Shown: positions 34,532-58,205, counted from the first letter of the stretch. The stretch is 64,000 bases of DNA from a bacterium (GCA_024638655.1 JAHEJW010000001.1:18043-82042); one strand, 5' to 3'. The notes: generated from the sequence alone by a model not told the origin. Translations and numbers: made by a program.

Positions 34532-34535
34532 TCCT

Positions 34536-34841: not shown

Positions 34842-35362
34842 TGCGGCCTCCGTCGGTAGTGAGCTAGGGCAATGGCCCCGGCGGCTGCGATGGTGAGCAG
34901 CAGGGCCGTCGCCTCGAAGGCCAGCACCCAGTCGGTGAACATCGGCTCGGCGATGGCCTGAACCGTTCCGATCGTCCGGCTCGGGTCGGTGCCGCCGACT
35001 GCAGCCGGGACCCAGTCAAAGTCGGTGAAAAAGGTGAGGCCGGCGGCCATGAGCACTACGACTCCGGCCATGCCTGCCACGAAGGAGCGCTGGTATCTGA
35101 GAGGTTCTTCCCAATGCTCCTCCTTGTCGACACCGATCAACATGATGACGAAGAGGAACAGGGTGAGCACCGCTCCGGCGTAAACGATTACTTGAACCGC
35201 AGCGACGAGATGGGCGAGCTGAAGGACGTAGAGCACCGCCACGGAGAAGAGCGTGCCAAGTAGGCCCATGGCCGAGTACACGGGGTTTCTCGCGGCCACG
35301 ACGGTGACCGCTCCGGCGAGCGCCGCCATTGACATCAGCACGAACAGGATGGGCTCAACCAT
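34838..35362 (-). CDS. nuoJ: NADH-quinone oxidoreductase subunit J (second operon)
   Basis: Start placed at ATG 35362 (MVEPILFVL...), preceded by GGAGG at the correct spacing and lying 4 nt after the nuoI stop. The track start at 35392 would overlap nuoI by 38 nt. Confidence 0.85.
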
Positions 35363-36014: not shown

Positions 36015-36016
36015 AA

Positions 36017-40943: not shown

Positions 40944-41563
40944 TCGCCCCCCTCGCTCTCGACCGTTCCGAGCGGCTGAAATGCCGGAAACGGTCCGATG
41001 GCGCCGTCGGTCTCGGGGATTGCCCAGTCGAAACTGCGCCGTCCTCCGAAGAGCTCCTGCATCTCATCTGTGTTGACGACGACCGGCCGAGCCTTCTTCA
41101 GCCACGTGACCAGATCGCGCGCTTTGTCCGGTGTCACGCCTTCGATCAGCTCATAGTTGACCTGCACGGCCGGCGCTCCACCGCAAGCGCCGATGCACTC
41201 GGCATGCTCGACCGACAGGAGCCCTTCTTCGTCGGTCTCACCGTGGGGCACGCCCGATTCGTCCTCGACGGCGTGCATCACTTCATCTCCACCAAGCAGC
41301 ATGCAGGAGATGGATGTGCAGCAGGAGATCAGATACTTGCCGGTCCGCTCCCTCTTGTACATCGTGTAGAAGCTCGCCACGGAGAGCACCTGCGCCGGGG
41401 TGATCTCACACCACCGGGCGACCTCCTCCATCCCGGTCTCGGTCAGGTGCCCTTCCTCGGCCATGGCCAGGTAGAGGAGCGGCATGACTGCCGATCGCTT
41501 CTGCGGGTAAAGGTCGATGATTTCGCGGGCACGCTCCTGGGTGCTCTCCGACCAGTGGCTCAT
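40940..41563 (-). CDS. nuoE: NADH-quinone oxidoreductase subunit E (24-kDa, 2Fe-2S)
   Basis: Thioredoxin-like 2Fe-2S subunit with CCTSISC....CIGACGGAP cysteines. 207 aa. Confidence 0.9.
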   Translation of the reverse strand: MSHWSESTQERAREIIDLYPQKRSAVMPLLYLAMAEEGHLTETGMEEVARWCEITPAQVLSVASFYTMYKRERTGKYLISCCTSISCMLLGGDEVMHAVEDESGVPHGETDEEGLLSVEHAECIGACGGAPAVQVNYELIEGVTPDKARDLVTWLKKARPVVVNTDEMQELFGGRRSFDWAIPETDGAIGPFPAFQPLGTVESEGGE

Positions 41564-41642
41564 CGGAGTGGGAGAATAGGGAGCAGGGAATACACGGGCG
41601 AAACCAGCGGAGAGGCTTCATTTCGCTGCAAAAAGCGCCCTC

Positions 41643-43010
41643 TCACCGATCTACGTCGCCCATCACCGGGTCCATGGACGCGATGGTCGCCACCGTGTCC
41701 GCAACAAGGCTATCTGCCATGGCGATTGGCAGACCCTGGAGGTTGTAGAAAGAAGGGGCCCGGGTGTGCATGCGCCACGGCATCGGCCCACCGTCTGCCA
41801 CCAGGTAGCAGCCGAGTTCGCCGCGTGGGGACTCCACCGCCACATAGGTCTCGCCGGCCGGCACCTTGAAACCTTCGGTGAATAGCTTGAAGTGGTGAAT
41901 CAGCGCCTCCATCGATTCGTCGATGCGAGCTCTGGGTGGGGGTGTGATCTTGCGGTCATCGATCCTGTAGTTGCCTTTGGGCATGGAGTCCATCACCTGC
42001 TCGACGATCTTCAGTGACTCTTCGATCTCTTCGACCTTGACCCGATAGCGGTCATACACGTCACCCCGCTCGCCAAGCGGCACGTCGAACTCGTACTGAT
42101 CGATACCCGAGTAGGGAAAAACCTTCCTGATGTCCCAGTCCACGCCGCTAGCCCTTAGTGGGGGGCCGGTGATGCTGTAGGCGATGGCTTCCTCGGCCTG
42201 GATTATGCCTACGTCCCGGGTTCGAGAAAGCCAGACCGGGTTCTCTTTGAGCAGATCGTCGTACTCCTGAAGACGGACTGGCATCTCCTTGAGAATCGCC
42301 GCGACGTCGTCCTTCCATCCGGGAGGAAGATCAGCGGCCACGCCACCCGGGCGGATGTAATTGTGGTTCATTCGGAGCCCGGTGGCCTTCTCGAAGAACG
42401 CGAGGATGGCCTCCCTCTCCCGAAAACCGTAGATCATCATCGAGAGGGCGCCGATGTCCAGACCGTTGGTTGCCAGAGCGACCAGATGGGAGGAGATCCG
42501 GTTGAGCTCGGTCATCAGGATCCTGATCGCGGCGGCGCGCGGTGGGACCTCGACGCCGAGGAGCCGCTCCACGGCAAGTGAATAGGCGAGCTCTTCGTGG
42601 AGTGGAGAGAGGTAGTCCATCCGCGTCACGTTCGTGGGCCCCTGGGCGTAATTGAGCTGCTCGGCGGTCTTCTCCATTCCGGTATGGAGATACCCGATGA
42701 TCGGCCGAGTTCGCCTGATGATCTCCCCCTCGAGCTCGATCTGCAGACGAAGAACCCCGTGGGTGGATGGGTGCTGGGGACCCATGTTCACGATCATGCG
42801 CTCATCGTCGTCAGCGTCCTCGTCGAACACGTAGTCATCTTCGACCACTCGACCGAACTGGGCGGCCAGCCGGTCCTCAGACTCGTGTTCGGAGATCTCC
42901 TGGCGGCCCTCGTCCGTGGGTTGGAACTGAGGCTCCTCGGTGCCTGCCACCCACAAGTCGAAGGTGTCGGTCTCTCCGCCGGCCTGGTCTTGTGTGTTCT
43001 CGTCGCTCAT
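41643..43010 (-). CDS. nuoD: NADH-quinone oxidoreductase subunit D (second operon) with an acidic N-terminal extension
   Basis: NMGPQHPSTHGVLRL ... SMDPVMGDVDR. Start at ATG 43010 (MSDENTQDQ...), 2 nt after the nuoC stop. About 70 acidic residues precede the conserved core. Confidence 0.9.
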   Translation of the reverse strand: MSDENTQDQAGGETDTFDLWVAGTEEPQFQPTDEGRQEISEHESEDRLAAQFGRVVEDDYVFDEDADDDERMIVNMGPQHPSTHGVLRLQIELEGEIIRRTRPIIGYLHTGMEKTAEQLNYAQGPTNVTRMDYLSPLHEELAYSLAVERLLGVEVPPRAAAIRILMTELNRISSHLVALATNGLDIGALSMMIYGFREREAILAFFEKATGLRMNHNYIRPGGVAADLPPGWKDDVAAILKEMPVRLQEYDDLLKENPVWLSRTRDVGIIQAEEAIAYSITGPPLRASGVDWDIRKVFPYSGIDQYEFDVPLGERGDVYDRYRVKVEEIEESLKIVEQVMDSMPKGNYRIDDRKITPPPRARIDESMEALIHHFKLFTEGFKVPAGETYVAVESPRGELGCYLVADGGPMPWRMHTRAPSFYNLQGLPIAMADSLVADTVATIASMDPVMGDVDR

Positions 43011-43012
43011 CG

Positions 43013-43486
43013 TCAGCTCACCTGATGGGCCTGCTTGAACTGGACCGGAACCGACCCCACCCCGAAGTCCTTCCGAAGCGGGTGACCTTCCCAATCGTCG
43101 GGCATCAGGATGCGCGTCAGGTCGGGGTGCCCTTCGAACTCGATGCCAAACATGTCGTACACCTCGCGCTCGGCAAAGTTGGCCCCCGGCCAGAGCGGCG
43201 TGAGCGATGCGATCGTGGGATCCTCTCGCCCCACCGAGGTGATCATGCGTAGCCGGATTCTGTGTTGCATCGACACGAGATTGGCAACGACCTCGAATCG
43301 CTCAGGCCTCAGACGCATCCAGTCGACCGCGGTGACGTCACCACATATCTCGAACCCCGCCTCCTTGGCGGCTCCGGCGAAGGAGAACCAGGCATCGGCG
43401 GGAACCCGCGCCACATCCTGGCCGTGAGAGTCCTCCCAGACAACGGCTTCGAACTGTTCCTTGAGATCCTCGAGCACCGGGCTCAT
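43013..43486 (-). CDS. nuoC: NADH-quinone oxidoreductase subunit C (second operon)
   Basis: [32 protein letters not shown]. Start at ATG 43486, forming an ATGA overlap with the nuoB stop. The track ORF from 43846 runs through nuoB in another frame and is rejected. Confidence 0.85.
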
Positions 43487-43950
43487 CTGACTATCTCGCG
43501 TGTCATTATCTTGTCGTGCAGGGTGAGGATCCCGTGCATGAGGCTCTGCGGGCCGGGAGGGCAGCCAGGCACATAGATGTCGACCGGAACGATCTGGTCG
43601 ACCCCCTGGACCAGGGCGTAGTTGTTGAACATGCCACCGGTCGAAGCACATGCACCCATCGAGATGACCCATTTTGGATCGGGCATTTGGTCGTAGACCT
43701 GGCGCAAAACCGGGGCCATCTTCTGACTGACGCGACCCGCCACGATCATGAGGTCGGCCTGGCGGGGGGAGGCGCGGAAGACCTCCATCCCAAAACGCGC
43801 AAGGTCGTAGTGGGCAGCTCCGGTGGCCATCATTTCGATGGCACAACAGGCCAGACCGAACGTGGCCGGGAACATCGAACGGGTCCGCGCCCAGTTGGCG
43901 GCACGCTCGACCGTGGTCATCAGCAGATTACCTGGGGGAGTCGTCGCCAT
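43483..43950 (-). CDS. nuoB: NADH-quinone oxidoreductase subunit B (second operon)
   Basis: [16 protein letters not shown] and PGCPP N2-cluster cysteine motifs. 155 aa. Confidence 0.9.
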
Positions 43951-43954
43951 CTCT

Positions 43955-44362
43955 TCAGGCGGCCCGGCGCGTCTCGGGTGCGAGATAGCGGGAACGTCGC
44001 TTCACATTCCAGTCGAGGGCGCCCCGCTTCCACACGTAAACCAGCGTCTCCAGGACGAAGAAGGTGAAGATGAGCACAGCTGCCACGCCGTACCAGCCCA
44101 GCTCGGTCCAGATGGAGCCCCAAGCGAACAGGAAGATGATCTCGACGTCGAAGATCACGAACAACATCGCCACCAGGTAGAACTTCACCGGGAATCTCTG
44201 AACGGGCTCGACCTCAGGAACGATGCCGCACTCATACGGGTCGAGCTTCTCCGGGGTCGGGCGGTTCGGCCGGAAGAAGCGGGAAGCCAGCAGCGATACT
44301 GCCACGAAACCCGCAGCCAGTACCAACATGATGCCGATCGGCAGGTAGTCGGCGAGAGTCAC
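43955..44362 (-). CDS. nuoA: NADH-quinone oxidoreductase subunit A (second operon)
   Basis: 135 aa, three TM helices, YECG motif. First gene of the 14-gene operon. Confidence 0.85.
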
Positions 44363-45710: not shown

Positions 45711-46379
45711 TCAACCCAGCAGGTTGTCGGCCAGGTCGGCCAAGTCGGGAAAGACCAGCTCCGGTGGTGGATTGGCCATACCCCAGACCACGCCTCGTCT
45801 CTTGAGGAAGGCCGCTCGAGCCCCCACCGCCATGGCTCCGGCACAGTCCCAGTCGTGGGCCGCCACCAGCATCAGCTCGGCTATCGGGACGCCCAGTGAC
45901 TCGGCAACATGCTGATACGGAGCCGGGTTTGGCTTGAACTTCCCCACCTCCTCGACCGAGAAGACACGCTGGATGAACACGTGCAGTCCCGCATTCTCGA
46001 TCTGAGCGTTCGCCGCCTCGCTGCTCGAGTTGGTGAGAGCGACGAGCCGAAGATCTGCGTCGAATAGCCGCTCCATGGCGTTGTACACATCGGGATGAGG
46101 CGGGAGGCTCCGCATCGCCCCTACGATCTCCTGAGCGTCCTCGCCGCGCAGCCCCATACCTCTCTTGGCTGCAACGATGAGCAGCGCCTCGACACCTATC
46201 TCGTCGAAGGGTCGATAGGTGCCCAGCTCGTTGGCGACCAGGGATCCATGCAGCATGCGGGCGAACCACTCGCCGACGGGCGGGGCCGCACCAAAGCCCT
46301 TCTCCAATGCCTTGGAGATCGGCTCGAGACTCAGCAGGGTCTCGTTGACGTCGAAAACGAGTACAGGTTTGGCTGTCAT
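45711..46379 (-). CDS. HAD-superfamily hydrolase (haloacid dehalogenase type II-like)
   Basis: N-terminal FDVNETL (DxxxT-type nucleophile motif), a VALTNSS motif II-like block and a C-terminal HDWD motif. 4-nt overlap with the upstream menJ-like gene. Confidence 0.65.
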   Translation of the reverse strand: MTAKPVLVFDVNETLLSLEPISKALEKGFGAAPPVGEWFARMLHGSLVANELGTYRPFDEIGVEALLIVAAKRGMGLRGEDAQEIVGAMRSLPPHPDVYNAMERLFDADLRLVALTNSSSEAANAQIENAGLHVFIQRVFSVEEVGKFKPNPAPYQHVAESLGVPIAELMLVAAHDWDCAGAMAVGARAAFLKRRGVVWGMANPPPELVFPDLADLADNLLG

Positions 46380-47614
46380 GCCGTCGGCAGGGTACGCACC
46401 ATTGCGGCGAGGGCGTCATAAGCGCGCTCGCCGGCTTCCTTTTCATCCTCGTCCAGGAGGTTCGACATCACTTTCAGCGTCCACTCCATGAGCGGCCGAT
46501 TCCGCAGACCGGTATGAGCCAGCGTCCGCATGACGGACGGGTATCCGATCAGCTTCACGAAGATCCGGGCCATCTTGTAGTAGAGGCCGAACTCGTCCTC
46601 GAGGCGCTGGGGGTAGCGTCGCAGCAGCCCGGTGTCACCTGAAGCCACGGCCTCGCTCACATACCCGGCTGCGATACGACCCGTCTCGTATGCGTAGGAG
46701 ATGCCTTCCCCATTCCATGGGTTGATGGCACCGGCCGCGTCGCCGATAGTTATCCAGTTGTCCCCGACGAGTGGGCTCTTCGAGAAGGACATCGTGAGCT
46801 TCCCGCCGGTTGGCTTGCTGAGCTTTGTCTCTTCCCCGATGCCCCAGTGTTCGGGAGCGGTGGCGACATAGTCGTCCATCATGTTGGTGGTGTTCACGTG
46901 CTTCCATCGCTTGAACGTGGACAGCAGGCCCACCCCGACGTTTACCGTCCCATCGCCGAGGGGGAACACCCACCCGTACCCTGGCATCGTTGCCCCGCTC
47001 CTGTCCCTGAGATCCAGCTGGCTCTCTAGAAAGGGGTCTTTGGACATCGGAGAGGCGAAGTAGCCCCTCGCCGCCATCCCCATCGGATAGTCGCGTCGCC
47101 TCGACGAGCCAAGGTCGCGGCCGAAGCGATTCATCGAACCGTCTGCGATGACGGTCACGTCGGGAACCACCACTTCCTTTTCCCCTCCCGATGCCAGCTG
47201 GACAGAGGTGAGACGGCCGTCCTCGATCACGGGAGTCGCCGCGGTCTTCTCCAGGACTCGCACGCCCTCCTTCTCCGAGAGCCTCGCGACCTGCATGTCC
47301 AGGTCGCTCCTCCGAATGACCCCGCCCCAATTGGGAAAGCGGGAATGCACGGGCCAGGCCATCTCGATCATCAGATCGTCGCCGGCATAGGACCTCAGAC
47401 CAGTGATCCGATGGAACTCAGGAACATCGAAGTCGAAGCCCATATCGGTCAACTGGAGAATCGCACGTGGAGTGAGACCATCACCACAGGTCTTGTCCCT
47501 GGGATACTCCTTCTTCTCTGCCAGAGTCACGTCGTGACCCGCACGCGCCAGCCAGAAGGCGGCAGCTGCACCGGCGGGTCCGCCGCCGACTACGAGTACG
47601 GAGGGTGAAGGCAT
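46376..47614 (-). CDS. menJ: geranylgeranyl reductase-family flavoprotein, likely menaquinone side-chain reductase
   Basis: VLVVGGGPAGAAAAFWLARAG FAD-binding fold; PRDKTCGDGLTPRA, PGYGWVFPLGDGTVNVGVGLLST and IGDAAGAINPWNGEGISYAYETGR closely parallel mycobacterial MenJ (Rv0561c) as recalled from memory. Confidence 0.75.
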   Translation of the reverse strand: MPSPSVLVVGGGPAGAAAAFWLARAGHDVTLAEKKEYPRDKTCGDGLTPRAILQLTDMGFDFDVPEFHRITGLRSYAGDDLMIEMAWPVHSRFPNWGGVIRRSDLDMQVARLSEKEGVRVLEKTAATPVIEDGRLTSVQLASGGEKEVVVPDVTVIADGSMNRFGRDLGSSRRRDYPMGMAARGYFASPMSKDPFLESQLDLRDRSGATMPGYGWVFPLGDGTVNVGVGLLSTFKRWKHVNTTNMMDDYVATAPEHWGIGEETKLSKPTGGKLTMSFSKSPLVGDNWITIGDAAGAINPWNGEGISYAYETGRIAAGYVSEAVASGDTGLLRRYPQRLEDEFGLYYKMARIFVKLIGYPSVMRTLAHTGLRNRPLMEWTLKVMSNLLDEDEKEAGERAYDALAAMVRTLPTA

Positions 47615-47641: not shown

Positions 47642-48283
47642 ATGGATAGGGCGCAGGACGGCGGTAACGTCGCCGGCATGAGCGGGTTATCCCGTGCCAC
47701 CGTCTCCAGGCTCCCTCAATATCTTCGTCTTCTCGAGGACATCGAGACGGGTGACACCATCAGCTCGGATCTGCTCGCCGAGGCTGCAGGTGTAAACGCG
47801 GCCAACGTGAGGCGTGATCTCTCCGATCTCGGCTTTCAGGGAACCAGAGGAGTCGGCTACTCGGTCCCCAACCTGCGTGACCGAATTCGACGGGAGCTCG
47901 GAATCGAAAAGCGCCGAAAGGTGGCGATAGTCGGCGCGGGGAACCTCGGCACTGCGCTCGCTCGCTACGGAGGCTTGGCCAAGCGAGGCTTCGACGTGGT
48001 GGCGATCTACGACATCGACCAGGAGCGAATCGGCTCACTCATCGGCGACGTGAAGGTCCAAGACATATCGGAAATGCCCGGAGACTGTGGGAGCGGGCTT
48101 TACGACATGGCCATCATTGCGGTCCCAGCCAGAGCGGCGCAGACCGTGGCGGAGGGCCTGGTGGACGCCGGAATCAGCTCGCTGCTCAATTTTGCCCCGG
48201 TGCGGGTGTCGGTACCGGATGCCATCCCAGTCCGGCAGGTGGATCTATCAACCGAGCTGCAGATACTCAGCTACTACGGCTGA
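47642..48283 (+). CDS. rex: redox-sensing transcriptional repressor Rex
   Basis: N-terminal winged-helix (RLPQYLRLL) and C-terminal Rossmann NAD(H)-binding motif VAIVGAGNLGTAL. 213 aa. Divergent from menJ with only 27 nt between the start codons. Confidence 0.8.
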   Translation: MDRAQDGGNVAGMSGLSRATVSRLPQYLRLLEDIETGDTISSDLLAEAAGVNAANVRRDLSDLGFQGTRGVGYSVPNLRDRIRRELGIEKRRKVAIVGAGNLGTALARYGGLAKRGFDVVAIYDIDQERIGSLIGDVKVQDISEMPGDCGSGLYDMAIIAVPARAAQTVAEGLVDAGISSLLNFAPVRVSVPDAIPVRQVDLSTELQILSYYG

Positions 48284-48354: not shown

Positions 48355-48723
48355 CTAGCCCGCTACCGCTTCCTCCTGGGCTTCTTCAAATTGATGCAGT
48401 GCGACCAGGAAGACGAGGAAGAGCACCACGGAGACGAGCAGGAACGTGATTGGGATCACCCGGATCTCGAATGCGTTCAGCCCTTCGATGTTGTCTGGCT
48501 TGGGGCCCCGTGGGGCGTAGATGACGAACAGGAGCGACGTGATGCTCATCCACCCGAACGTGGCGGCACCGGTGACCAGGAAACCGAGCCGCTTGCCCAG
48601 ATTGGTGTAGTTGAACAGGTAGATCGACCCGTAGAAGAGGAGAACCGAGGCGATCGTCAGGATGATGCCTGTTACGAAGAGGTTGGCCGACAGAAGTGAC
48701 CTGAATAGCTCACGGAAGAACAT
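48355..48723 (-). CDS. small hypothetical membrane protein, last gene of the Rieske/cytochrome b operon
   Basis: 122 aa, 3-4 TM helices, 14-nt overlap with the diheme cytochrome c gene. Possible small accessory subunit. Confidence 0.4.
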   Translation of the reverse strand: MFFRELFRSLLSANLFVTGIILTIASVLLFYGSIYLFNYTNLGKRLGFLVTGAATFGWMSITSLLFVIYAPRGPKPDNIEGLNAFEIRVIPITFLLVSVVLFLVFLVALHQFEEAQEEAVAG

Positions 48724-50443
48724 TCTCTACCGTCCCTCCTTTCCCATCGAGATTTCCGCTCCGAAGGTAGGCGGCCACCAACTCGATGTCCTCCTGGGCG
48801 AGAATCGCCCCGAAGGCAGGCATGCGACCCGAGCCAAATCCGTTGAGGCCATAAGGCCGATTGGCCACCGAGCCGTTGATCAGGAAGTCCACGAGAAGGT
48901 CTTCGCCCAACTCAGCCGGGTCCTCGCCGAACTGAACCACGGGCCTCCCGTCCCAAAGAGCCGGGCCAAATCCGCCGGATCCCGCCTCCTGAGTGAAGGG
49001 GATGCCCGCCGAGAATCCGGCGGTGTGACACCGGGCGCAGTTCGCCAAGAAGAGCCCAACGGCTCGTTCGGCGTCATCTTCGGACACGTCTCTTCCGAGC
49101 TGGGCCGACATCGCTTCGGCAACTCCTGCGATGTCGATCTCCCAGGCGCGCCGCTCGGCCGCATTGACCAGGAAATCGAGCCCGGCTGATTCGCTTTCGA
49201 GGAGTTTCTCCTGGTTCTCGGCGGCGACCCCTGTGTTGATCGCCACGGTCTCCAGTCCACCCACCATCGCGGTCGCTGCGGCCAGGTCGGCCTGGCCGGC
49301 CGTCGACTCTGGGTTTGCCGGATCGAGCGAAACTGCGGTGAGCCGAGTCGGCACCGTGGCATCGACCGCTGCGGCAAATTGCCCGCTTATCGCGGACTCG
49401 GCCTGATCGGAGATCCCGTCTCCGTCGGTGTCCTCGCCTTCGGGAGGAGCATCCAGCTCCGCCTCGATCGCAGCGATGTTGAGAAGCAGGATCGGATCGG
49501 TCTCCGCGGCCGTCCTGAGCCGGTCGAGACCGGACTGCACCAAATCGGCGTCGGCGACAGCAGGATCCATAACAACCGGCTCGATCACCCGATAGAACTC
49601 GATCGCACTTTCGGAGATCTCCGACAACTCCGCTTCGGCGGCGTCCGACAAGCCGTCGGCGTCGGTATCGATGCCTTCGTCGGCAGAGTCGAGGATTTCG
49701 AGTGCGCGGTCGGCCAGTGGGACGATGAAGGCGGCGTTCCCGGGCGCCTGCTCGATCTCGGCGACGACCTGACGCTGATTGGCGATGGCCGTCTCCATCG
49801 TGGCGTCTGCATTCCCGAACCTCTGGAGTTGGATGTCGATCTCAGCTGCGGTCTTGTCGACCGCCTCCTGCTGGGGGATTTGGATGGTCTCGAGGTAGTT
49901 GACGACGTCTTCGATCTGCTTCTCGTTCATCGGGCCACCGCCATCGAGACCCCAGGCCGGCATCGGCGTGTTCCCTCGGCCATAGGTGAGCCAGTAGTTC
50001 ACTTCGTCTGCGTCATAGCGATAGAAGACGTCGTTGATGGCCGGCGCCGCCCAGGAGACTGTGACACCGGAACGCTTCTCCACGAACCTCGCCGAGCCAC
50101 CTACACCTAACGGCCCGTGGCAGCTGTAGCAGGCGAACTCCTCGACCAGGTGCTCGCCTCGCTCTACCGACGCTTCCTCGAACTCATCGACAAATCCTTC
50201 CTGCCGGTTCTGCTCACCCAAGAAGTAGAGGGGCAGGGAGATGGCGAGGAATGCCGAGGCTGCGATGGCCACCTTTTGGCCTGTCTCGAGCCGTCTGGTC
50301 TCCAATTCCTGGTCGTTGGTCCCGGGCTGGAGGTTCGGGGCCACCTCCTCTGAGCCGCGATTTCGCAAAGCCGACACCACGACGAGACCGAGCCACACGA
50401 TGCCGGCTACGACGGCGAGAACAGTGATGATGTTCGCGGTCAT
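48710..50443 (-). CDS. membrane-anchored diheme cytochrome c with a ~300-aa acidic insert between the heme domains
   Basis: N-terminal TM helix and two CxxCH motifs (CYSCH, CARCH), each followed by class-I-like cytochrome c sequence. The intervening region is Asp/Ala-rich with two DTDxDGxSD motifs. Confidence 0.75.
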   Translation of the reverse strand: MTANIITVLAVVAGIVWLGLVVVSALRNRGSEEVAPNLQPGTNDQELETRRLETGQKVAIAASAFLAISLPLYFLGEQNRQEGFVDEFEEASVERGEHLVEEFACYSCHGPLGVGGSARFVEKRSGVTVSWAAPAINDVFYRYDADEVNYWLTYGRGNTPMPAWGLDGGGPMNEKQIEDVVNYLETIQIPQQEAVDKTAAEIDIQLQRFGNADATMETAIANQRQVVAEIEQAPGNAAFIVPLADRALEILDSADEGIDTDADGLSDAAEAELSEISESAIEFYRVIEPVVMDPAVADADLVQSGLDRLRTAAETDPILLLNIAAIEAELDAPPEGEDTDGDGISDQAESAISGQFAAAVDATVPTRLTAVSLDPANPESTAGQADLAAATAMVGGLETVAINTGVAAENQEKLLESESAGLDFLVNAAERRAWEIDIAGVAEAMSAQLGRDVSEDDAERAVGLFLANCARCHTAGFSAGIPFTQEAGSGGFGPALWDGRPVVQFGEDPAELGEDLLVDFLINGSVANRPYGLNGFGSGRMPAFGAILAQEDIELVAAYLRSGNLDGKGGTVENVLP

Positions 50444-50449
50444 GGTCGA

Positions 50450-51331
50450 TCAGCCACCGATGCAGCTGGGGCCGCGGGGATAGCTGACGCTCAGCAGCTG
50501 GGATCGAGGGGTCTGGATGACCGTCCCCGTCTTGATGATGAAACGATCGCTCTGCACCTCGACCACGAAACGGTCGAGGTTGCGTGGAGCCGGGCCGGCG
50601 AAATACTCGCCGATGGAGCTGTATTTCGATCCGTGGCAGGGGCACTCGAAACCTTGGGACGTCGCACACCAGGGAACCCGGCACCCGAGGTGGACACACC
50701 GCTGAAAGAGAGCCATCAGACCGGCGGCTTCTACCCCGTCGCCTTCCATCGACTCGGGGACAACAGGGGACGGGACCACGTAGGCCCGAGCCTCCGGGAC
50801 GAAGACGGGGACAATCGAGCCATCGGCAGCAACCGTCTGGTTTTGAATGTCGGCGACCGTGCCGGCATCGACGTCGGTTCCGAAGCCTCCGCTCAGCTTG
50901 GGCCACATGAATGCAAGCGAGTTGATGCCCACCAGGCCCAGGAATGCGAAGAACGTCCCGCTCAACGCGCGGTTGAAGAACTGTCGCCGGGTGACACCGG
51001 ACTCCTCGGGTGTCACTTCGATGACCCGTTGCCGCTCTATCACCTGGACGCTTCCTCCAGCCGGGGCGAGCTCCTGGCTTGGCTCCGCTTCGACCTCTAC
51101 TTCGACTTCCGCAGGCTGGGGCTCGGAGACCGGCTCCGGCTCGGGCAAGGGCTCGACGCGCACGCCCTCCATCGACCGATCCGACCGACGAGTCTCCTCT
51201 GATACGCCGGCGGTGGGATCGGGGGCTGGCGCGTCCGCCCTCGAGCGCCGGAAAGCCACGGTGAATGCGCCAATCGCCCCCACGATTGCGAAGAGGGCAA
51301 CACCGATGAGAACCATGTTGGTGAAAGTCAT
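50450..51331 (-). CDS. Rieske [2Fe-2S] iron-sulfur protein
   Basis: Cluster boxes CVHLGCRVPW and CPCHGSKY, twin-arginine motif TRRQFF, N-terminal TM helix and an acidic Pro/Glu-rich linker. Confidence 0.85.
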   Translation of the reverse strand: MTFTNMVLIGVALFAIVGAIGAFTVAFRRSRADAPAPDPTAGVSEETRRSDRSMEGVRVEPLPEPEPVSEPQPAEVEVEVEAEPSQELAPAGGSVQVIERQRVIEVTPEESGVTRRQFFNRALSGTFFAFLGLVGINSLAFMWPKLSGGFGTDVDAGTVADIQNQTVAADGSIVPVFVPEARAYVVPSPVVPESMEGDGVEAAGLMALFQRCVHLGCRVPWCATSQGFECPCHGSKYSSIGEYFAGPAPRNLDRFVVEVQSDRFIIKTGTVIQTPRSQLLSVSYPRGPSCIGG

Positions 51332-52347
51332 TCGAAGTTCACCCAGTCCTTGAGGTCATCGAAGAAGACGCCGTCGCGCCACGGATAGGAGAAGTTGAAC
51401 CCCTGACCTCTGAAGAGCACACCGATGATCGTCAAGGTCGCAGATCCGGCCAGGAAGATCGAATAGAGCATGATGGCGAATTTGCGGTCAGTGGGACGGG
51501 TCGAGGGGTTCTTGTCGACGTAGGGGATCATCATGAACCCGATCAATCCGATGAAGAGTGGAACCATGACCCCTGCGACTTGGGGATCGAAGTAGCTCAG
51601 GAGCTCCTGGAGACCAAGGAAGTACCAGGGTGCCTTGGAGGGATTGGGCGTGGCATTGAAGTTGGCCGGCTCCAGCAGCGGGGAGTGGATCACGACCGAC
51701 ATGATGACGAGCAGCCCCGTGATCGCGAGCAACGCGCCGAACTCCATCAGCATCAGATGCGGCCACGTGTTCACTTTGTCGCTCGGCTCGGCTTTGACGT
51801 TCTGGATTGCCCGCGCCTTGACGACAGTGAGCAACCTCTGAGTCCTCACCCCTTCGGGCAGACCGGCCGGCGGAACGCTGGGTCTTGGGCTCACCAGACC
51901 GGCAACCTTGCCGTTTCCTCCACCACCATTGGAGGGAGCTACCGGGACAGTCTCTTCTTCGCCCATGGTGGCGACGGCCGCAGCAGGCTCCTCCGCCTCG
52001 GCGGCAGCCGCGTCTTCGTCCGGAATGACCGCGGCTGCGGGCGCCTCGAAAGGCTCCTCTTCCTCGGTGACGTCGGGCTCGATCGACTCCGGCTCATCGC
52101 CCGGTTCTGGGGTGGCCGGCTTGGTGATGGTCTCCACGTCGCCGGTCGCGACTGCCTCCGCCGCCTCTACGACCATCTCCTTTGGCTCGGGCTTGTCGCT
52201 CGCCTCTACCGGCGCCTCGATCTTGGGTGGCTCTACAGGCGGGCCTTCACCCTTCATCTCGGCCAGCACCTGCTCGACCGGCACACCCAACGCCTTGGCC
52301 TTGGCTTCTGCCGATCTCCTCAGGAGATCTTCTGGTATCTCAACCAT
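51328..52347 (-). CDS. cytochrome b C-terminal-domain protein (b6f subunit IV-like) with a ~200-aa hydrophilic N-terminal extension
   Basis: C-terminal three-TM domain with a PEWY-box equivalent (KAPWYFLGLQELL). AAGGAG RBS upstream of ATG 52347. The N-terminal extension is Ala/Glu/Pro-rich. Confidence 0.7.
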   Translation of the reverse strand: MVEIPEDLLRRSAEAKAKALGVPVEQVLAEMKGEGPPVEPPKIEAPVEASDKPEPKEMVVEAAEAVATGDVETITKPATPEPGDEPESIEPDVTEEEEPFEAPAAAVIPDEDAAAAEAEEPAAAVATMGEEETVPVAPSNGGGGNGKVAGLVSPRPSVPPAGLPEGVRTQRLLTVVKARAIQNVKAEPSDKVNTWPHLMLMEFGALLAITGLLVIMSVVIHSPLLEPANFNATPNPSKAPWYFLGLQELLSYFDPQVAGVMVPLFIGLIGFMMIPYVDKNPSTRPTDRKFAIMLYSIFLAGSATLTIIGVLFRGQGFNFSYPWRDGVFFDDLKDWVNFE

Positions 52348-52358
52348 TCAACAACTCC

Positions 52359-53135
52359 TTACAGAGGCCCCGAGATGCCGCCGTCCTTGCGAACCCGCCA
52401 GAAGTGAACGGCGAGAAACACGACCAGGACGAATGGGAAGAAGAGGACATGCAGAACGTAGAAGCGGAGCAAGGTCGAACCGCTCACTTCAACTCCTGCG
52501 AGAAGTGCGAACTTGACCTGGTCACCGATCACGGGGGAAAACCCAGCCATGTTGGAACCTACCGTGACAGCCCAAAGCGCCAGCTGATCCCAGGGCAACA
52601 GATAGCCGGAGAAGGAGAGGAACAAAGTGAGGAAGAGGAGGATCACGCCGACGACCCAGTTGAACTCGCGTGGCGGCTTGTATGCACCGTGGTAGAAGAC
52701 GCGACTCATGTGGAGGAAGACTGACAGGACCATGAGGTGGGCGCCCCAACGATGCATGTTTCTCACCAGAGAGCCGAAGGCGACGTTGGTGGACAACGCC
52801 TCCATGTCCGCATAGGCGATTTCGGCAGTGGGCGTGTAATAGAACATCAGGAAGATGCCGGTGATCGTGAGCAGGATGAACAGGAAGAAACTCAGGCCGC
52901 CCAGACACAAGGTGTACGACAGGCGGACTCCGTGCCGCTTCACCTTCACCGGGTGGAGGTGGTACAGCACGTTGTTCATCACCACGTAGGAGCGGTTCCT
53001 CGGGCTGTCCGAGTAGCCCTGTTTGAACGGGGAGCCCGGTCGGAGTATCGATTCGACAACCTGTGAGCTCCAGAGCTTCTCGTTCGTTTCCTTGATTCGC
53101 TCCTTGAGGCTGGTTCTTCCGTTTCCGTTGGCCAT
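52359..53135 (-). CDS. cytochrome b6-like protein (N-terminal four-helix cytochrome b domain with heme ligands)
   Basis: [50 protein letters not shown] and paired His ligands (LH...13 residues...H) in helices B and D. 258 aa. Confidence 0.85.
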
Positions 53136-53152
53136 TGAGTGTCTCTTCTTCC

Positions 53153-53602
53153 CTACCAGCGCATACCGTAGGAGTAGCCGTTTTTGAAGTCACGTTGACC
53201 GGTGTCGAAATCCCATGGGCGAAGATCGAGGCCGAGCTCGGCAGCCTGCTCGGCCAACGAGCCCTCGAACTTGCCGAGGGTGATCACGTTCGTAGGGCAC
53301 CTGTCGATGCACAGCTGGCATCTGGTGCACTCGTCCTCATCGACGATGAAGAAGCCATAGTTCTGGGGGTCCTCGCCAGGATGGTCGACATTGACACCTT
53401 CTGAAATCGCGTCCAGCGAGAGGTAATGGATGCACTTCCACGGACAGATATCGACACAGCCCTCACAGAGAATGCACTCGGCCTGGTCGATGTGGAGGAA
53501 CTGCTTGGGGCGAAGCTTGTCCTTGAAGTAGTCGCCCTCGACAACGGCGAGCTGATAGTCGTCTCTGATCGGCGGGATCTCATCGATGACACCTTTGGGC
53601 AT
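53153..53602 (-). CDS. 2x[4Fe-4S] dicluster ferredoxin
   Basis: [12 protein letters not shown] and [12 protein letters not shown]. 149 aa. TGATG overlap with the upstream membrane-protein gene, and immediately precedes cytochrome b6. Confidence 0.8.
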
Positions 53603-54234
53603 CAGCGATCACCCCTCACCAGTGGCCTGCCGTATGGCGAGGTCTTCTCGACAGGCTGGGCGCCTGCCGGCCGACCTTCCTTCATTCTCTGGATCTGGAT
53701 GGCGAGCACCGCTGCAAACCCGAGTAGACCCAGGCTGTAACCCATCTGGATCGAATCTCTGATCACCGCGTAGCTGATCTCGACGGTGTTGCCCAAGACG
53801 AGGAAAGGAGGGATCGCAAGGGCGACGCGCTGGCTCGACCATTCGAGATCGGTTTGGGCGAAGTTGAGCCACTCGCTCGGGACCATGCCGAAATAGAACA
53901 CCAGAGCCGACCAGGCGATGACCGCGGCCGTCGTGGCCCGGGCCCAGGTCATCTTCTGGTTGAGCACCCAGAGAAATGTCGCGCCCACAATGGCGAAGGT
54001 GCTGGCCCCCAGGACGATCACGTAGCCAACCGCCTTCCACCACATTCCCCTGGGGAACCAGTTCAGCTGATCCACCACGACCGGTACCTCGACACCGTTC
54101 ACCAGCTCGGTCTCCGGCAAGCTGGACCAATGGATCCAGATGACTCCGATGATGAGGCCGATCAAGCCGAACAGGATCAGCAACGACCCGATGGCCTTGC
54201 GGCGGCTATCACTCAGTTCTGCGAGGCGATACAT
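53602..54234 (-). CDS. hypothetical 4-TM membrane protein, first gene of the Rieske/cytochrome b operon
   Basis: 210 aa, four predicted TM helices, no recognisable cofactor motif. Translationally coupled to the ferredoxin gene. Confidence 0.4.
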   Translation of the reverse strand: MYRLAELSDSRRKAIGSLLILFGLIGLIIGVIWIHWSSLPETELVNGVEVPVVVDQLNWFPRGMWWKAVGYVIVLGASTFAIVGATFLWVLNQKMTWARATTAAVIAWSALVFYFGMVPSEWLNFAQTDLEWSSQRVALAIPPFLVLGNTVEISYAVIRDSIQMGYSLGLLGFAAVLAIQIQRMKEGRPAGAQPVEKTSPYGRPLVRGDR

Positions 54235-54395
54235 CGTCGGCTCTCGTGCGCGTCCCTATAGCTGTCTGGGCGTTTGTACCACACGGTGAAGGGCCTTTGT
54301 GAACCCGAACCGCACGCTACTCGCCCAAATGTAGCGGCGAAGAGGAGTCACGAAGTCGTTATGCTCCCGCCGTCGCGCCATCTAGAGGTTGAGGC

Positions 54396-55835
54396 TTGGC
54401 TCAGACGCAAAGCTCGAACATCAGAACCCTCCTCGGGGGCGGCGCAGGCGGAGACCGCCTGGCCGCAACGCATTTTCTGGTAGGTGCCGCGTTTCTCGTC
54501 CTCGGTGGGGCTTTCTCTCTGCTGTCGCTTCTATCGCTCAGATTCGCCGGGCTCTTCCCACTCACTTATGGCCGTTTCGAGCCAATGGCGAATCTCAGCC
54601 TGATCATCGGATTCGCAGTCATCTCCCTCGTAGGCGGTGTCTACTACGTGCTCCCAAGACTCACCGGGACCGTCCTGTGGCGAGATGAGATCGCCGGCCT
54701 GGGACTCCTGGGGACGGCGGGCATCGTCGTTCTCGGTCTGGCCGCCACCGCCCTGGGCTTGGGCAGTGGCCGCGGCCCATTCGACCTCCCCTGGTGGCTG
54801 AGTGTTCCGTTGGCGCTCGTGCTCGCCATCCCGGCGGTCGTCACCCTCGGAACGGTTGCCAACCGTGAGGAGCAGCGGAGTTACGTGTCGATCTGGTTCG
54901 TTCTCGGCGGAACTGCGTGGCTTTTCCTGCTGACGCTGGCGTATCTGGTGGGGGATCTGCCTTTTGTCGGGTCACTCGCTGTTGCCTATGCCGACGTCTT
55001 CTACTCGGCGGGATTGGTCACGCTCGTCGTGTTCACCTTGGGCACGGGCCTCTTCTACTACACGGTGGTGAAGGAGCTCGACGTAGCCCTGGCCAGTCGT
55101 CAACTGGCGATGTTGGGGTTTTGGTCTCTCGGCTTCGCCGCCGTGTGGTGGGGGGTCGCCCAGGTCATGTTCGGGCCCGGCCCGACCTGGGTCTCCGGTG
55201 TCGTGGCGGCCCTCGGTCTTGCCTTCCCGATAGGGGCGCTGGCGAACGCAGCCAACGTGGCGCTCACCCTCGAGGGCTCCTGGGGACGGCTCGAGGCCAA
55301 ACCCGGAGTCACCGCAGGTGTGTACGGACTGTTTCTCGGCGTCGGGGTTGCTTTCCTCGCCGCCATGGGCGGGTTCCGCTCCATCGCCGCAGTGACATCG
55401 TTGACCGCGTTCTGGGAAGCCATCGAATACGCCGCAGTTCTGGGTGCCGGCGCCTTACTCGTGGCAGGCATCAGCTTCCAGGCGCTGCCCCGGTTGCTGG
55501 GCCGCGAGATCCATTCCCTGGATCGGGCCAGGTCCTTTGCCAGGCTCACCGTGATCGGCGCCGTTGGGGTACTGGTCTTCATGGCTGCCTCGGGCGTGGT
55601 CTCCGGCTATTCGTGGATCGCCGGATCGAACTCGGCCGCCTACATCGACGCCGGTGAGGGCTGGCAGGCCGGGGCCGGCGAGGTCCCCGACGCACTCCTC
55701 CTGATAGCGATCCTGTTCGCCTTCGTCACCTTCGCAGGACAACTTGCATACGCCTCCACGGTCTTCGGGACGGTCACCAGGGGCAAGGCCACCACCCAGG
55801 AGTTACTGGTGACGGGGATGACCGACGATGAGTGA
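54396..55835 (+). CDS. heme-copper oxidase subunit I (CcoN)-like 12-TM protein lacking the canonical histidine metal ligands
   Basis: 12 predicted TM helices. FEPMANLSLIIGFAVISLVGGVYYVLPRLTG parallels the CcoN MHG...GGFGNYLVP block, and AVWWGVAQVM parallels WWYGHNAV, with His replaced in both; only 2 His occur in 479 aa. TTG start with AGAGG upstream. Confidence 0.55.
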   Translation: MAQTQSSNIRTLLGGGAGGDRLAATHFLVGAAFLVLGGAFSLLSLLSLRFAGLFPLTYGRFEPMANLSLIIGFAVISLVGGVYYVLPRLTGTVLWRDEIAGLGLLGTAGIVVLGLAATALGLGSGRGPFDLPWWLSVPLALVLAIPAVVTLGTVANREEQRSYVSIWFVLGGTAWLFLLTLAYLVGDLPFVGSLAVAYADVFYSAGLVTLVVFTLGTGLFYYTVVKELDVALASRQLAMLGFWSLGFAAVWWGVAQVMFGPGPTWVSGVVAALGLAFPIGALANAANVALTLEGSWGRLEAKPGVTAGVYGLFLGVGVAFLAAMGGFRSIAAVTSLTAFWEAIEYAAVLGAGALLVAGISFQALPRLLGREIHSLDRARSFARLTVIGAVGVLVFMAASGVVSGYSWIAGSNSAAYIDAGEGWQAGAGEVPDALLLIAILFAFVTFAGQLAYASTVFGTVTRGKATTQELLVTGMTDDE

Positions 55836-56589
55836 TCAGCTGAGCGCAGCGGCCGCAGCCCTGGGCATACCCGAGTCGCTGGTCGAAAGGTCCGCGGCGG
55901 CGCGCGCCGCCGAGACCGGATCCAGCGCCGATGAGATCCTGACGGCATGGGCCGGAGGCGAAGCGGCCCCGACGCCGACCCGGCTGGCCGATGAGGCACC
56001 TGAGCCAGAAACCGCACCCGTCCCCGAGGCGCCCACAGAGGAGCCTGCGACCCCCGAGGTCGTGATCGAGACTCCCCCGCCCCCGGCAGCCAAACCTGCG
56101 GCGCCGGTACCCGCCGGGCCCTATAAGCCGCCGGTGCTGGTTGGAGCCAGAGACAACCCGATGATCGTCCTGGCTGCCGCGGTCGGCCTGTTCGCGGTCA
56201 TCTTCCTGGTCGGGTTCGTGGGGCCCTCGTTCCAGGGAGAGGCCCCTGGAACACGCACCTCGGAGATTCAGTACTCGGCACGGGCACTCGACGGCAGGGG
56301 CGTGTATGCCTCGCTGAATTGCGGCTCATGCCACACCCAGTTGGTGCGGCCGGTCATCGCCGATGTGGGCCTGGGGGCCGTCACGGTTCACGACACCAAT
56401 CAAGTGATCGGGACGCGCCGGTTCGGGCCAGACCTTTCCAATGTCGGGGCGCGACTCAGCGAATCCCAGCTCGAGGCCGTCGTCATTGGGCTCGGCGAAC
56501 ACCCCGCCTACGTTCTCTCGTCGGAGAACGTGAGTGCGCTAGTGGCCTATCTGGCGGAGTCGCAGACCGCGGAAGCAACGGGGGGCTGA
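55828..56589 (+). CDS. CcoO-like membrane-anchored monoheme cytochrome c
   Basis: TM anchor then GRGVYASLNCGSCHTQLVRP...RRFGPDLSNVGAR, matching the CcoO/FixO heme region including the GPDL..VG.R motif. Its start overlaps the upstream stop (ATGAGTGA). Confidence 0.6.
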   Translation: MSDQLSAAAAALGIPESLVERSAAARAAETGSSADEILTAWAGGEAAPTPTRLADEAPEPETAPVPEAPTEEPATPEVVIETPPPPAAKPAAPVPAGPYKPPVLVGARDNPMIVLAAAVGLFAVIFLVGFVGPSFQGEAPGTRTSEIQYSARALDGRGVYASLNCGSCHTQLVRPVIADVGLGAVTVHDTNQVIGTRRFGPDLSNVGARLSESQLEAVVIGLGEHPAYVLSSENVSALVAYLAESQTAEATGG

Positions 56590-57644
56590 TGAGTGAGTAT
56601 CTGAGCGCAGCGGCCGCAGCCATGGGTCTCCCCGAGGTTCTCGTCGAGCGCTCCGCCGAGGCGAGAGCCACCGAGACCGGAGCCACCGTCGACGAAGTCC
56701 TCCAGGCGTGGGCCGGTGGCGGTGAGATCAGCGCACCTCCCCCGAAACCGGCTGAAGAACCTGCTGGTGAGGCGGCCGCCGAAGAGACGGCGGCTCCCGA
56801 AGAGACCCCGGAACCACAGGCAGCAGCAGCTCCAGTCGCCGCAACGGTGGAAGTCGCAGAGCCGTCGGCCACTGCCCGGGTTCCAACACGCGCTCCGGTC
56901 CCAGAAACGGTCAACTCTGCAGCAGCGGCGCGTCTTCCTGAGGTCGTGACCGTTCCGACTGCCGGGATCAGGGAAAAGACCAGCTTCGCCATCCCCAAGT
57001 GGCTGACCGCCGTTCTTCTGGTTGCCCCGCTCTTCGCATTGTTTGCACTGGGCGGATCGGCGACAGGTGAATGTGGTGCGGCAACTGAGTTGAGGGCGGA
57101 CGTCGTCACCGGCGAAATCGTCAACTGCGATGGCACCGAGTTCACCGGTCAGGCAGTCGGCGGAGGGGGGACCAACTTCATCGCACTCGGCGAAAGCATC
57201 TACCTGGGCGGCGAGGTCACCGGCGTCAACTGTGCCGGTTGCCATGGTCCGGCTGGACAGGGAGCGGGAGCATTCCCTTCGATGACCGGGGTCAACAACA
57301 CGTTTGGTGCATGCACGGACCACATCGAATGGGTGGTCTTGGGTACGGGTGGCTTCCAGGCGGCTGGCAGGAGTACCTACGGCGACACCGGGAAACAGGT
57401 TGGTGCCGCCGGCAACATGCCCGGGTTCTCGAGCAATCTCAGTGCGGAGCAGATTGCTGCCGTCGTCGCCTTCGAGCGCGCCAGGTTCGGTGGAGGCGAC
57501 GCCGATGCAGTGCTCACCGATTGTGGCCTCGTCGAAGAGGCGGGCACCGAGGGAGAGCCCGGAGAAGAGGGTGGTGAAGGCACCGGTGGTGAGGGCACCG
57601 GTGGTGAGGGCGGCACCGAGGCCTCAGCCGGCTCTTCCGGCTGA
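56589..57644 (+). CDS. membrane-anchored class I cytochrome c (CcoP-like partner) with a Gly/Glu-rich C-terminal tail
   Basis: ATGA overlap with the upstream gene. One CxxCH (CAGCHGP) in a class-I cytochrome c context (GNMPGF, LSAEQIAAVVAF). The C-terminal GEGTGGEGTGG tail is encoded by a 15-nt tandem repeat. The 441-aa track ORF from 56319 is an upstream over-extension. Confidence 0.6.
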   Translation: MSEYLSAAAAAMGLPEVLVERSAEARATETGATVDEVLQAWAGGGEISAPPPKPAEEPAGEAAAEETAAPEETPEPQAAAAPVAATVEVAEPSATARVPTRAPVPETVNSAAAARLPEVVTVPTAGIREKTSFAIPKWLTAVLLVAPLFALFALGGSATGECGAATELRADVVTGEIVNCDGTEFTGQAVGGGGTNFIALGESIYLGGEVTGVNCAGCHGPAGQGAGAFPSMTGVNNTFGACTDHIEWVVLGTGGFQAAGRSTYGDTGKQVGAAGNMPGFSSNLSAEQIAAVVAFERARFGGGDADAVLTDCGLVEEAGTEGEPGEEGGEGTGGEGTGGEGGTEASAGSSG

Positions 57645-57890
57645 GCGCTTGACGAGCCTCGTAAGCCGTCGCTGGTCGTCGATGATCCCTTCCGCGATCA
57701 CGTGGTCATCGGGCCCGAGCAGGACGGGGATCCTCATCCCGTAACTCGCCTCCAGCTCCGGTGACGATTCCACATCGATCTCTTGGAGCTCTGCTTTCAC
57801 CGCTGCCGCCGCCTTCTCGACGAGAGGCCTCGCATCTTCGCAGAGATGGCATCCGGGGCGGGTCAGAAAACGAAGTCTGAAATGTCTCAA
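57624..57890 (-). CDS. glutaredoxin-like protein (DUF836-type, CxxC)
   Basis: FLTRPGCHLCEDARPLVE...EIDVESSPEL..YGMRIPVLL pattern. Start proposed at TTG 57890 with GGAG 9 nt upstream. The 164-aa track ORF from 58118 would add 76 non-conserved residues. Confidence 0.5.
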   Translation of the reverse strand: MRHFRLRFLTRPGCHLCEDARPLVEKAAAAVKAELQEIDVESSPELEASYGMRIPVLLGPDDHVIAEGIIDDQRRLTRLVKRSAGRAG

Positions 57891-58031
57891 GGAATCACTC
57901 TCCGTGACCGATAAACACGAGACATGTGGAGAGGATATTCCGTCTCCCTCATACCTAGGGCACGTTCGTCCAAGGTGTGAACGGATAGCCTCCCAGCCCG
58001 CCCCACGGTGACGGAGTCCTCTCACATGTAG

Positions 58032-58059
58032 GTCGGGGCCCTCGACAGAGGGCCCCGAC
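58032..58059. terminator. GC-rich hairpin (12-bp perfect stem GTCGGGGCCCTC / GAGGGCCCCGAC, loop GACA)
   Basis: Read directly from the sequence. It lies ~150 nt downstream of the minus-strand DUF62 gene and upstream of the glutaredoxin-like gene, with no strong U-tract on either strand. Confidence 0.35.
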
Positions 58060-58205
58060 ACATCTGTTTCCGGGCCCGTTTCCGTGAGCCGAGGGCTCAG
58101 GACACAGCCGAGCAGCAATCACGACGCTCTTATCCTCCAACCGGATGCGACCCGCTACAGCAATCGTGATCATCATTCTGCTTGCGGTGATCGCCGTAGC
58201 TGGTG

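Follow-up and report, generated by a model that had tools for sequence, protein, structure and literature searches.

The known interfaces of bc1-cbb3 and bcc-aa3 respiratory supercomplexes are transmembrane or periplasmic, and we know of no shared cytoplasmic tethered domain described for them. In reports on Pseudomonas aeruginosa (PMC10556555) and Rhodobacter capsulatus (PMC7876108), such supercomplexes are described as complex III joined to a complex of the haem-copper-oxidase type. We analysed a 64,000-nucleotide stretch of bacterial DNA (GCA_024638655.1, JAHEJW010000001.1:18043-82042; here called the window, with positions counted from its first nucleotide) that contains two divergent respiratory gene clusters, a bc-type operon on the minus strand and a set of CcoNOP-like genes on the plus strand. 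Three subunits encoded by these clusters, a FixO/CcoO-like monohaem cytochrome, a second monohaem cytochrome c, and subunit IV of the bc-type complex, begin with copies of one small module. We conclude that the module constitutes a new domain family, attached to respiratory subunits of known kinds, and that its anatomy is best read as serving docking or assembly.

A shared module on three respiratory subunits

Copies of the module occupy residues 1 to 45 of the CcoO-like protein (copy 1; 55828-55962, plus strand), residues 1 to 45 of the second cytochrome c (copy 2; 56589-56723, plus strand), and residues 1 to 35 of subunit IV (copy 3; 52243-52347, minus strand). The first two belong to a subtype that we call A and the third to subtype B. 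All three N termini read exactly as quoted in the original prediction, which had proposed the common module, and their similarity over approximately 33 to 42 residues was confirmed. We built a hidden Markov model (HMM) from the 33 columns shared by the three N termini and used it, with its filters disabled and at a threshold of E ≤ 100, to scan the window translated in six frames. The HMM matched the three module sites (55867-55965, 56628-56726, and 52240-52338, respectively) and no further copy in the 64 kb.

Two-sequence BLASTP comparisons with composition-based statistics showed that the CcoO-like and cytochrome c copies were 73% identical over 44 amino acids (E = 1e-21), that the CcoO-like and subunit IV copies were 42% identical over 36 amino acids (E = 7e-7), and that the cytochrome c and subunit IV copies were 47% identical over 32 amino acids (E = 4e-8). 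The Smith-Waterman scores for the same pairs were 162, 57, and 68 versus 28 ± 5.5, 20 ± 4.1, and 21 ± 4.4 for composition-preserving shuffles, so that the observed scores exceed the shuffle means by approximately 9 to 24 standard deviations. None of 20,000 shuffles attained the observed scores, and Ala-richness therefore does not explain the match, which the original prediction had raised as a concern. The earlier observation that subunit IV resembles only the second half of the other two N termini also stood, with a correction: its copy is the first module in the chain and lacks the short first helix, which internal subunit-IV-type repeats in other organisms retain.

An AlphaFold2 model of the isolated module, built with a 45-sequence alignment, contained helices at residues 5 to 12, 16 to 30, and 34 to 41, with 39 residues at a predicted local distance difference test score (pLDDT) of at least 90. 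In the model of the full-length CcoO-like protein, the module helices spanned residues 2 to 12, 16 to 30, and 34 to 42 in a block with a pLDDT of 88 to 93, followed by coil at residues 45 to 105 (pLDDT, 50 to 70), a transmembrane (TM) helix at residues 111 to 134 (pLDDT, ∼90), and finally the cytochrome domain. On these models, the module is predicted to be an independently folding three-helix domain of ∼42 residues. Across 117 diverse copies, positions P15, R21, S22, A25, and A27 are nearly invariant, and L18, A23, R/K26, G31, L38, W/M41, and G43 are strongly conserved. A chance similarity between low-complexity N termini, or a generic signal-anchor on unrelated proteins as the original prediction had held out, would be in keeping with the Ala-rich composition of the region. 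The shuffles, the near-invariant positions, and the confidently predicted fold speak against chance, and a hydrophilic, folded module that lies 57 to 207 residues before the true anchor is not what a signal-anchor looks like. We regard this explanation as refuted.

In all three proteins, an acidic linker separates the module from the membrane. The linker of the CcoO-like protein is Pro/Ala/Glu rich (residues 46 to 108; 55963-56151, plus strand), was modelled by AlphaFold2 as coil, and leads to a single TM anchor that was identified by hydropathy and AlphaFold2 (residues 109 to 137; 56152-56238, plus strand) and to a monohaem FixO/CcoO-like cytochrome c domain with its CxxCH motif at residue 165 (PF02433; 56239-56589, plus strand). 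In 48 orthologues, this linker has a median length of 66 residues (range, 57 to 126), a composition of 27% Pro, 22% Ala, and 12% Glu, and a median net charge of −8. The second cytochrome c has an acidic Ala/Pro/Glu linker delimited by orthologue comparison (residues 46 to 131; 56724-56981, plus strand), with a median of 86 residues (range, 74 to 112) and a median net charge of −9.5 in orthologues, followed by a TM anchor (residues 132 to 160) and a monohaem cytochrome c domain with CxxCH at residue 215 (together 56982-57644, plus strand; hydropathy and Pfam). The linker of subunit IV, also delimited by orthologue comparison, is the longest (residues 36 to 195; 51763-52242, minus strand; median in orthologues, 170 residues; range, 109 to 207; median net charge, −26), and it precedes a membrane domain with three TM helices and an APWYFL Qo-site motif (51328-51762, minus strand; PF00032 and hydropathy).

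Haem c is attached outside the cell, and in b6f and bc complexes the N terminus of helix E (PetD) lies on the n-side. The two cytochrome modules are N-terminal to a single TM segment, and the CxxCH domain beyond it is necessarily outside the cell; these modules are therefore cytoplasmic. The subunit IV module precedes helix E and is therefore cytoplasmic as well. The topology check thus upheld the cytoplasmic placement that had been proposed. A signal peptide, a Tat signal, and a generic signal-anchor were each considered for the N termini and rejected, since there is no h-region and the first hydrophobic segment is at residue 109, 132, or 196. An RRS in subtype B precedes AEAKAKA with no h-region, compared with the Tat pattern of S/T-R-R-x-F-L-K followed by an h-region.

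Database searches returned no known relative of the module. The two A modules matched no Pfam family at E ≤ 10, and the B module matched only MIF, at an E value of 0.18. Over the 117 diverse copies, no Pfam family was matched by more than four members. No NCBIfam match reached the three N termini, and profile searches of the PDB gave no sequence relative, with best E values of 0.028 for a 3-sequence profile and 0.61 for a 117-sequence profile. The module therefore represents an undescribed domain family. The original prediction had asked whether it is a known domain; it belongs to no curated family and forms a separate family with several carriers. The literature that we searched contained no description of the module, of ligand-less CcoN homologues, or of bc operons of the Acidimicrobiia.

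Several known folds were considered and rejected. A ribbon-helix-helix fold (CopG/Arc/MetJ) was suggested by the IPE-x-L-x-x-R...G pattern, and the models are all-helical, with three helices and no strand; CopG_antitoxin was matched by 1 of the 117 copies (E = 0.027). The peripheral-subunit-binding domain (PSBD; E3_binding, PF02817) did not appear among the Pfam matches with E ≤ 10. UBA and SAP/HeH gave no profile matches, and the Foldseek match to UBA had a probability of 0.03. Matches to helix-hairpin-helix (HhH), helix-turn-helix (HTH), and ANTAR families were scattered and below threshold, and the module is acidic.

If the module bound nucleic acid or anionic lipid, it would be a three-helix motif of the HTH or HhH kind that anchors the complexes to RNA or the nucleoid or that lies on the membrane surface. 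The charge is of the wrong sign for such a role, with a mean net charge of −2.5 for the module (range, −8 to +2) and of −8 to −26 for the tethers. Moreover, no HTH or HhH family matched more than 2 of the 117 copies, none had an E value below 0.003, and on our reading of the sequence, the hairpin position whose backbone NH is the donor in HhH motifs is a Pro. We consider this role very improbable. The module also contains no Cys or His and so has no cofactor site.

Conservation, carriers, and copy number

We compared the conservation of the different regions of each protein as mean pairwise identity over 48 genomes. Identities of the module, linker, and TM/haem domain were 0.66, 0.37, and 0.55 in the CcoO-like protein; 0.72, 0.46, and 0.58 in the second cytochrome c; and 0.90, 0.56, and 0.84 in subunit IV. 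In each protein, the module has a higher identity than the haem or TM domain, and we conclude that it is a real domain under selection. Subtype A (...LxAWAGG) has one consensus at every position in both c-cytochromes, and subtype B (...LAEMKGE) of subunit IV is 0.956 identical between 48 species. Twelve fixed differences distinguish B from A, most of them a Lys or Arg gained in B.

The A modules of the CcoO-like protein and the cytochrome c were 0.84 identical within a genome versus 0.71 between genomes, a difference attained by none of 5,000 permutations, and the within-genome value exceeded the identities between orthologues (0.69 and 0.76). At identical residues of these two modules, the same codon was used at a frequency of 0.59 within a genome versus 0.47 between genomes. 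The corresponding controls with subunit IV codons were flat (0.39 versus 0.38 and 0.40 versus 0.39), which rules out genome-specific codon usage as the source of the within-genome DNA similarity. The codon excess together with the flat controls indicates a contribution from gene conversion between the 5′ ends of the two cytochrome genes (761 bp apart), so that the A modules are homogenised within a genome partly by recurrent conversion in a concerted evolution of the cytochrome 5′ ends. The two cytochrome genes had been reported to share an identical 21-nucleotide stretch. The stretch exists, and an exact search placed its copies at 55840-55860 and 56601-56621 (both plus strand), one base lower than originally given. 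The stretch was probably left behind by gene conversion between the module-coding 5′ ends. Both genes begin ATGAGTGA over the upstream stop codon, as had been noted; the CcoO-like gene overlaps the CcoN-like open reading frame (ORF) by 8 nucleotides, and the second cytochrome c gene overlaps the CcoO-like ORF by TGATG. The two cytochrome genes are therefore translationally coupled to their upstream neighbours.

We determined the architectures of module carriers from an exhaustive profile search over 1.84 billion cluster representatives. The module was present in 436 representatives at E ≤ 1e-3 and in 227 at E ≤ 1e-10. A scan of one genome per species gave 230 confirmed module stretches, and their records are nearly all Acidimicrobiia or Actinomycetota metagenome-assembled genomes, with a few bins labelled otherwise. 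The Acidimicrobiia are an abundant, barely cultivated class of soil, sediment, and seawater. The full trio of carriers was found in the same divergent arrangement at 48 of 79 loci, which means that the carriers are all produced at the same place.

The module is not limited to the three subunits to which it was originally assigned. There are at least five carrier families: the CcoO-like protein (one copy), the monohaem cytochrome c (one to five copies), subunit IV (one to five copies), a small subunit with four TM helices whose gene closes the bc operon, and an orphan polytopic protein of ∼320 to 430 amino acids that belongs to no Pfam family. Many module proteins have two to seven tandem copies with P/A-rich linkers between them. 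Homologues of the 122-amino-acid membrane protein of the window carry three and seven tandem copies in other uncultured Actinomycetota (P0051 and P0044), and the window's own version, encoded by the last gene of the bc operon, has none. The module is absent where CcoO has no free N terminus. At one locus (L082; GCA_030431785.1, 5636-9997), CcoN and CcoO are fused into a protein of 640 amino acids, and the CcoO part has no module; at that locus four modules are found on the cytochrome c and two on subunit IV. A 534-amino-acid cupredoxin/multicopper-type protein and an Rrf2 regulator are encoded between the two clusters of L082.

The orphan polytopic carrier (∼380 amino acids; L067, 10001-11164, and also L006, L022, and L066) has one A-type module. 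In L067 it lies at a separate locus, its neighbours are a methyltransferase, a dioxygenase, and YceI, and an aa3-type COX1 is 5.5 kb away. Apart from the module itself, nothing in the window is homologous to this protein.

In every full-length match, the module stood before the first TM segment and never elsewhere. Module matches lacking a TM segment were contig-end fragments or frameshifted gene calls, and a fusion of the module to HhH-GPD (P0160), apparently a chimeric or frameshifted gene call, was left out of the carriers. This strict position is what would be expected of a factor in biogenesis or quality control, in which a fast-folding cap and its spacer, with no stable partner, would fix an N-in anchor, provide a delay for targeting, or shield the tail from FtsH-type proteolysis. 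The first helix is N-in in all carriers, which also suits a cap. However, one cap would be sufficient, and the two to seven tandem copies, each with its own linker, are left unexplained. Other N-in subunits of the same operons (Rieske, dihaem cytochrome c, cytochrome b6, and CcoN-like) do without the module, and two fixed subtypes and a 96% conservation of B exceed the needs of a generic cap. We consider a biogenesis role unlikely.

The initial search for homologues of the module returned only proteins of ≤88 amino acids, many of them truncated or frameshifted with Arg-rich ends. Public gene calls are often truncated, frameshifted into Arg-rich tails, or fused to a neighbour (P0004, P0031, P0034, P0038, P0116, P0062, and P0103), apparently because of the GC-rich Pro/Ala linker. 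The names "energy transducer TonB" (P0039), "HpaF" (P0012), and "MFS family permease" (P0123) seem to have arisen artefactually from the linker or TM region.

A possible docking role

The anatomy suggests a handle for docking. The module sits in the cytoplasm at the end of a long, flexible, strongly acidic Pro/Ala/Glu tether that extends from its respiratory subunit's membrane anchor, and it would act as a multivalent docking handle, or "sticker on a spacer." The modules would bind one another, the CcoNOP-like complex contributing two equivalent A copies through its c-cytochromes and the dimeric bc-type complex a more basic B copy through subunit IV. Acting from the cytoplasmic side, this binding would gather the subunits and complexes, either during synthesis from the translationally coupled genes or later as loose clusters, and the copy number (one to seven) would set the valency. 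We give this reading, a multivalent cytoplasmic docking handle with module-to-module binding favoured, a probability of roughly 0.38. We favour module-to-module binding because all carriers must meet in the membrane, because the A copies are held equivalent within a genome, because the charges of A and B differ in a complementary direction, and because the shape of the module resembles that of repeat units that pack side by side. The original prediction had suggested a shared docking or supercomplex interface. The shared unit was found, but a fixed interface does not suit flexible acidic linkers of 57 to 207 residues and up to seven tandem copies, which fit a flexible multivalent handle.

Several points weigh against docking by module-to-module binding. 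The structure matches of the module to toroids involve designed helices of idealised form and are of a kind that short helical hairpins give in general. No selection for pairing is needed for the A modules to be alike within a genome, since gene conversion by itself can make them so. The tethers exceed the length needed to bridge neighbouring complexes. The orphan carrier with seven TM helices, encoded at an unrelated locus (L067), is not obviously a member of either complex. Finally, a conserved external partner would account at least equally well for the near invariance of subtype B.

An external partner is the basis of the alternative that each module binds one copy of a common soluble protein of the cytoplasm, for example a regulator, a chaperone, or a redox partner, and keeps it close to the membrane complex, in the manner of the PSBD or of ribosomal L7/L12. 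The architectures are alike, with a helical mini-domain of ∼40 residues, Ala/Pro-rich linkers, and a copy number that varies between species. A 95.6% identity of subtype B across species is expected if its whole surface meets a conserved partner, and the CcoO-like and cytochrome c modules are equivalent, with the same consensus. A candidate would be the cytoplasmic 2x[4Fe-4S] protein that the bc operon encodes, which is conserved at a mean identity of 87%. However, the module has no sequence or profile relation to the PSBD or to any Pfam family. By analogy with these systems, we think that recruitment of a soluble partner is possible and nearly as likely as the module-module association that we prefer.

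The two gene clusters and their relation to known systems

The bc-type operon comprises seven genes, recognised mainly by Pfam (48355-54234), all on the minus strand. In the order of transcription, they encode a 210-amino-acid membrane protein (53602-54234; Pfam and hydropathy), a 2x[4Fe-4S] ferredoxin (53153-53602; Pfam), cytochrome b6 (52359-53135; PF00033, 157 bits), subunit IV (51328-52347; PF00032, 32.2 bits versus a cut-off of 20.7), a Rieske protein (50450-51331; PF00355, 29.2 bits), a dihaem cytochrome c (48710-50443; Pfam and CxxCH motifs), and the 122-amino-acid membrane protein (48355-48723; hydropathy). The synteny of the operon is kept in 55 to 68 loci, and the flanking genes are syntenic too. 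Cytochrome b6, subunit IV, and the Rieske protein are encoded by adjacent genes, which is the arrangement of a Rieske-cytochrome b complex with split cytochrome b6 and subunit IV. The operon resembles those of b6f and Bacillus-type bc complexes in holding these three genes together, and it differs in the ∼195-residue cytoplasmic N-terminal extension of subunit IV and in the additional ferredoxin. The nearest NCBIfam model in this comparison was ExtQ, at 55 bits, under its cut-off of 150.

The ferredoxin is a protein of 149 amino acids with two CxxCxxCxxxCP motifs and no TM segment or signal peptide. Its gene lies immediately upstream of that for cytochrome b6, and its mean identity of 87% was measured over 66 loci. 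It may belong to the bc-type complex as an extra cytoplasmic subunit. In the dihaem cytochrome c, the CxxCH motifs are at residues 105 and 469, 364 residues apart, and the stretch between them is acidic and includes a weak match to the bacterial TSP3 (Ca-binding) repeat at residues 338 to 352. The end of the operon is flanked by genes for a Rex-type redox-sensing repressor (Put_DNA-bind_N plus CoA_binding; 47642-48283, plus strand) and a geranylgeranyl-reductase-like flavoprotein (46376-47614, minus strand), which are syntenic in 39 to 47 loci. Farther away in the window, at ∼29600-44000 on the minus strand, is a run of large codirectional ORFs of 486, 510, 628, 812, 472, 207, and 483 amino acids. 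Their sizes alone suggest a Nuo (complex I) operon.

The divergent cluster on the plus strand encodes a CcoN-like polytopic protein (54396-55835; PF00115, 69 bits), the FixO/CcoO-like monohaem cytochrome (55828-56589; PF02433 FixO, 35.1 bits versus a cut-off of 29.6), and the second monohaem cytochrome c (56589-57644; Pfam and CxxCH). A gene for a glutaredoxin-like DUF836 protein (57624-58118) comes after them. The cluster shares with cbb3 CcoNOP the gene order N-O-(P-like) and the FixO domain of the second gene, and the best PDB sequence matches of the CcoN-like protein were CcoN chains (9g6b_A, E = 8e-20; 3mk7_A, E = 1.7e-19). CcoN has six conserved His ligands, two for the low-spin haem b, one for the high-spin haem b3, and three for CuB. 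In the alignment to 9g6b_A, the corresponding positions of the CcoN-like protein are A65, A205, A255, Q256, I343, and Y345. The protein has two His in total, and H26 is the sole conserved His among 68 Acidimicrobiia homologues. The product of the third gene has one CxxCH motif and is monohaem, in contrast to the dihaem CcoP. Scores for the TIGR ccoN, ccoO, and ccoP models were far under their cut-offs (for ccoO, TIGR00781, 37.5 versus 200), and the hmmscan matches to the FixO, ccoO, and ccoP models started at residues 109 to 133 and 211, past the module and linker.

With all six haem and Cu ligands replaced, as in the 68 species compared, the CcoN homologue does not belong to a cbb3 oxidase, and so the cluster does not encode an ordinary oxidase. 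The term cbb3-like complex in the original prediction is therefore not supported. Judged from sequence, the pair is best read as a bc-type complex and a CcoNOP-derived, ligand-less cytochrome c module. A more specific form of the docking proposal is that the Acidimicrobiia organise part of their respiration by a dedicated cytoplasmic sticker-and-spacer system, which couples the ferredoxin-containing bc-type complex, the ligand-less CcoNOP-derived scaffold, and further membrane proteins through A-B binding in an assembly of tunable multivalency. We regard this form as doubtful.

At minimum, these results define a new domain family, which would allow better annotation of proteins whose linker now draws names such as "TonB" and "HpaF" and of many genes that are truncated by gene callers. 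The module could also serve as a 40-residue bait for retrieving the whole assembly. If it is a docking handle, it would mark membrane proteins that cooperate in the Acidimicrobiia, including the orphan polytopic protein and a haem-copper-oxidase homologue that is unable to bind metals.

Of the described systems, the PSBD of the 2-oxoacid dehydrogenase E2 is a helical docking mini-domain of ∼35 to 40 residues with Ala/Pro-rich flexible linkers and a variable number of tethered domains. The module shares with this swinging arm the helical mini-domain, the Ala/Pro linkers, and the variable copy number, and docking is presumed for it. It differs in giving no profile match, in having three helices, in being membrane anchored on respiratory subunits, and in the strong acidity of its linkers. 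The ribosomal stalk protein L7/L12, which recruits factors, likewise has several equivalent small domains on flexible hinges in a copy number that varies between lineages, and the presumed role is likewise to raise the local concentration of a partner. Its sequence and fold are unrelated to those of the module, and the resemblance is architectural only. The designed left-handed alpha/alpha toroids (dTor, 4yy2/4yxz; 9h3c) are artificial and have no homology to the module, and their repeats are contiguous, unlike module repeats, which are spaced by linkers of 50 to 100 residues. With respect to the known supercomplexes, a docking role would mean that respiratory complexes are organised, as is rare, from the cytoplasmic side by flexible multivalent tethers and not by transmembrane contacts. 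Should the sticker-and-spacer reading hold, it would represent a principle of supercomplex formation or clustering that has not been seen in any studied respiratory chain.

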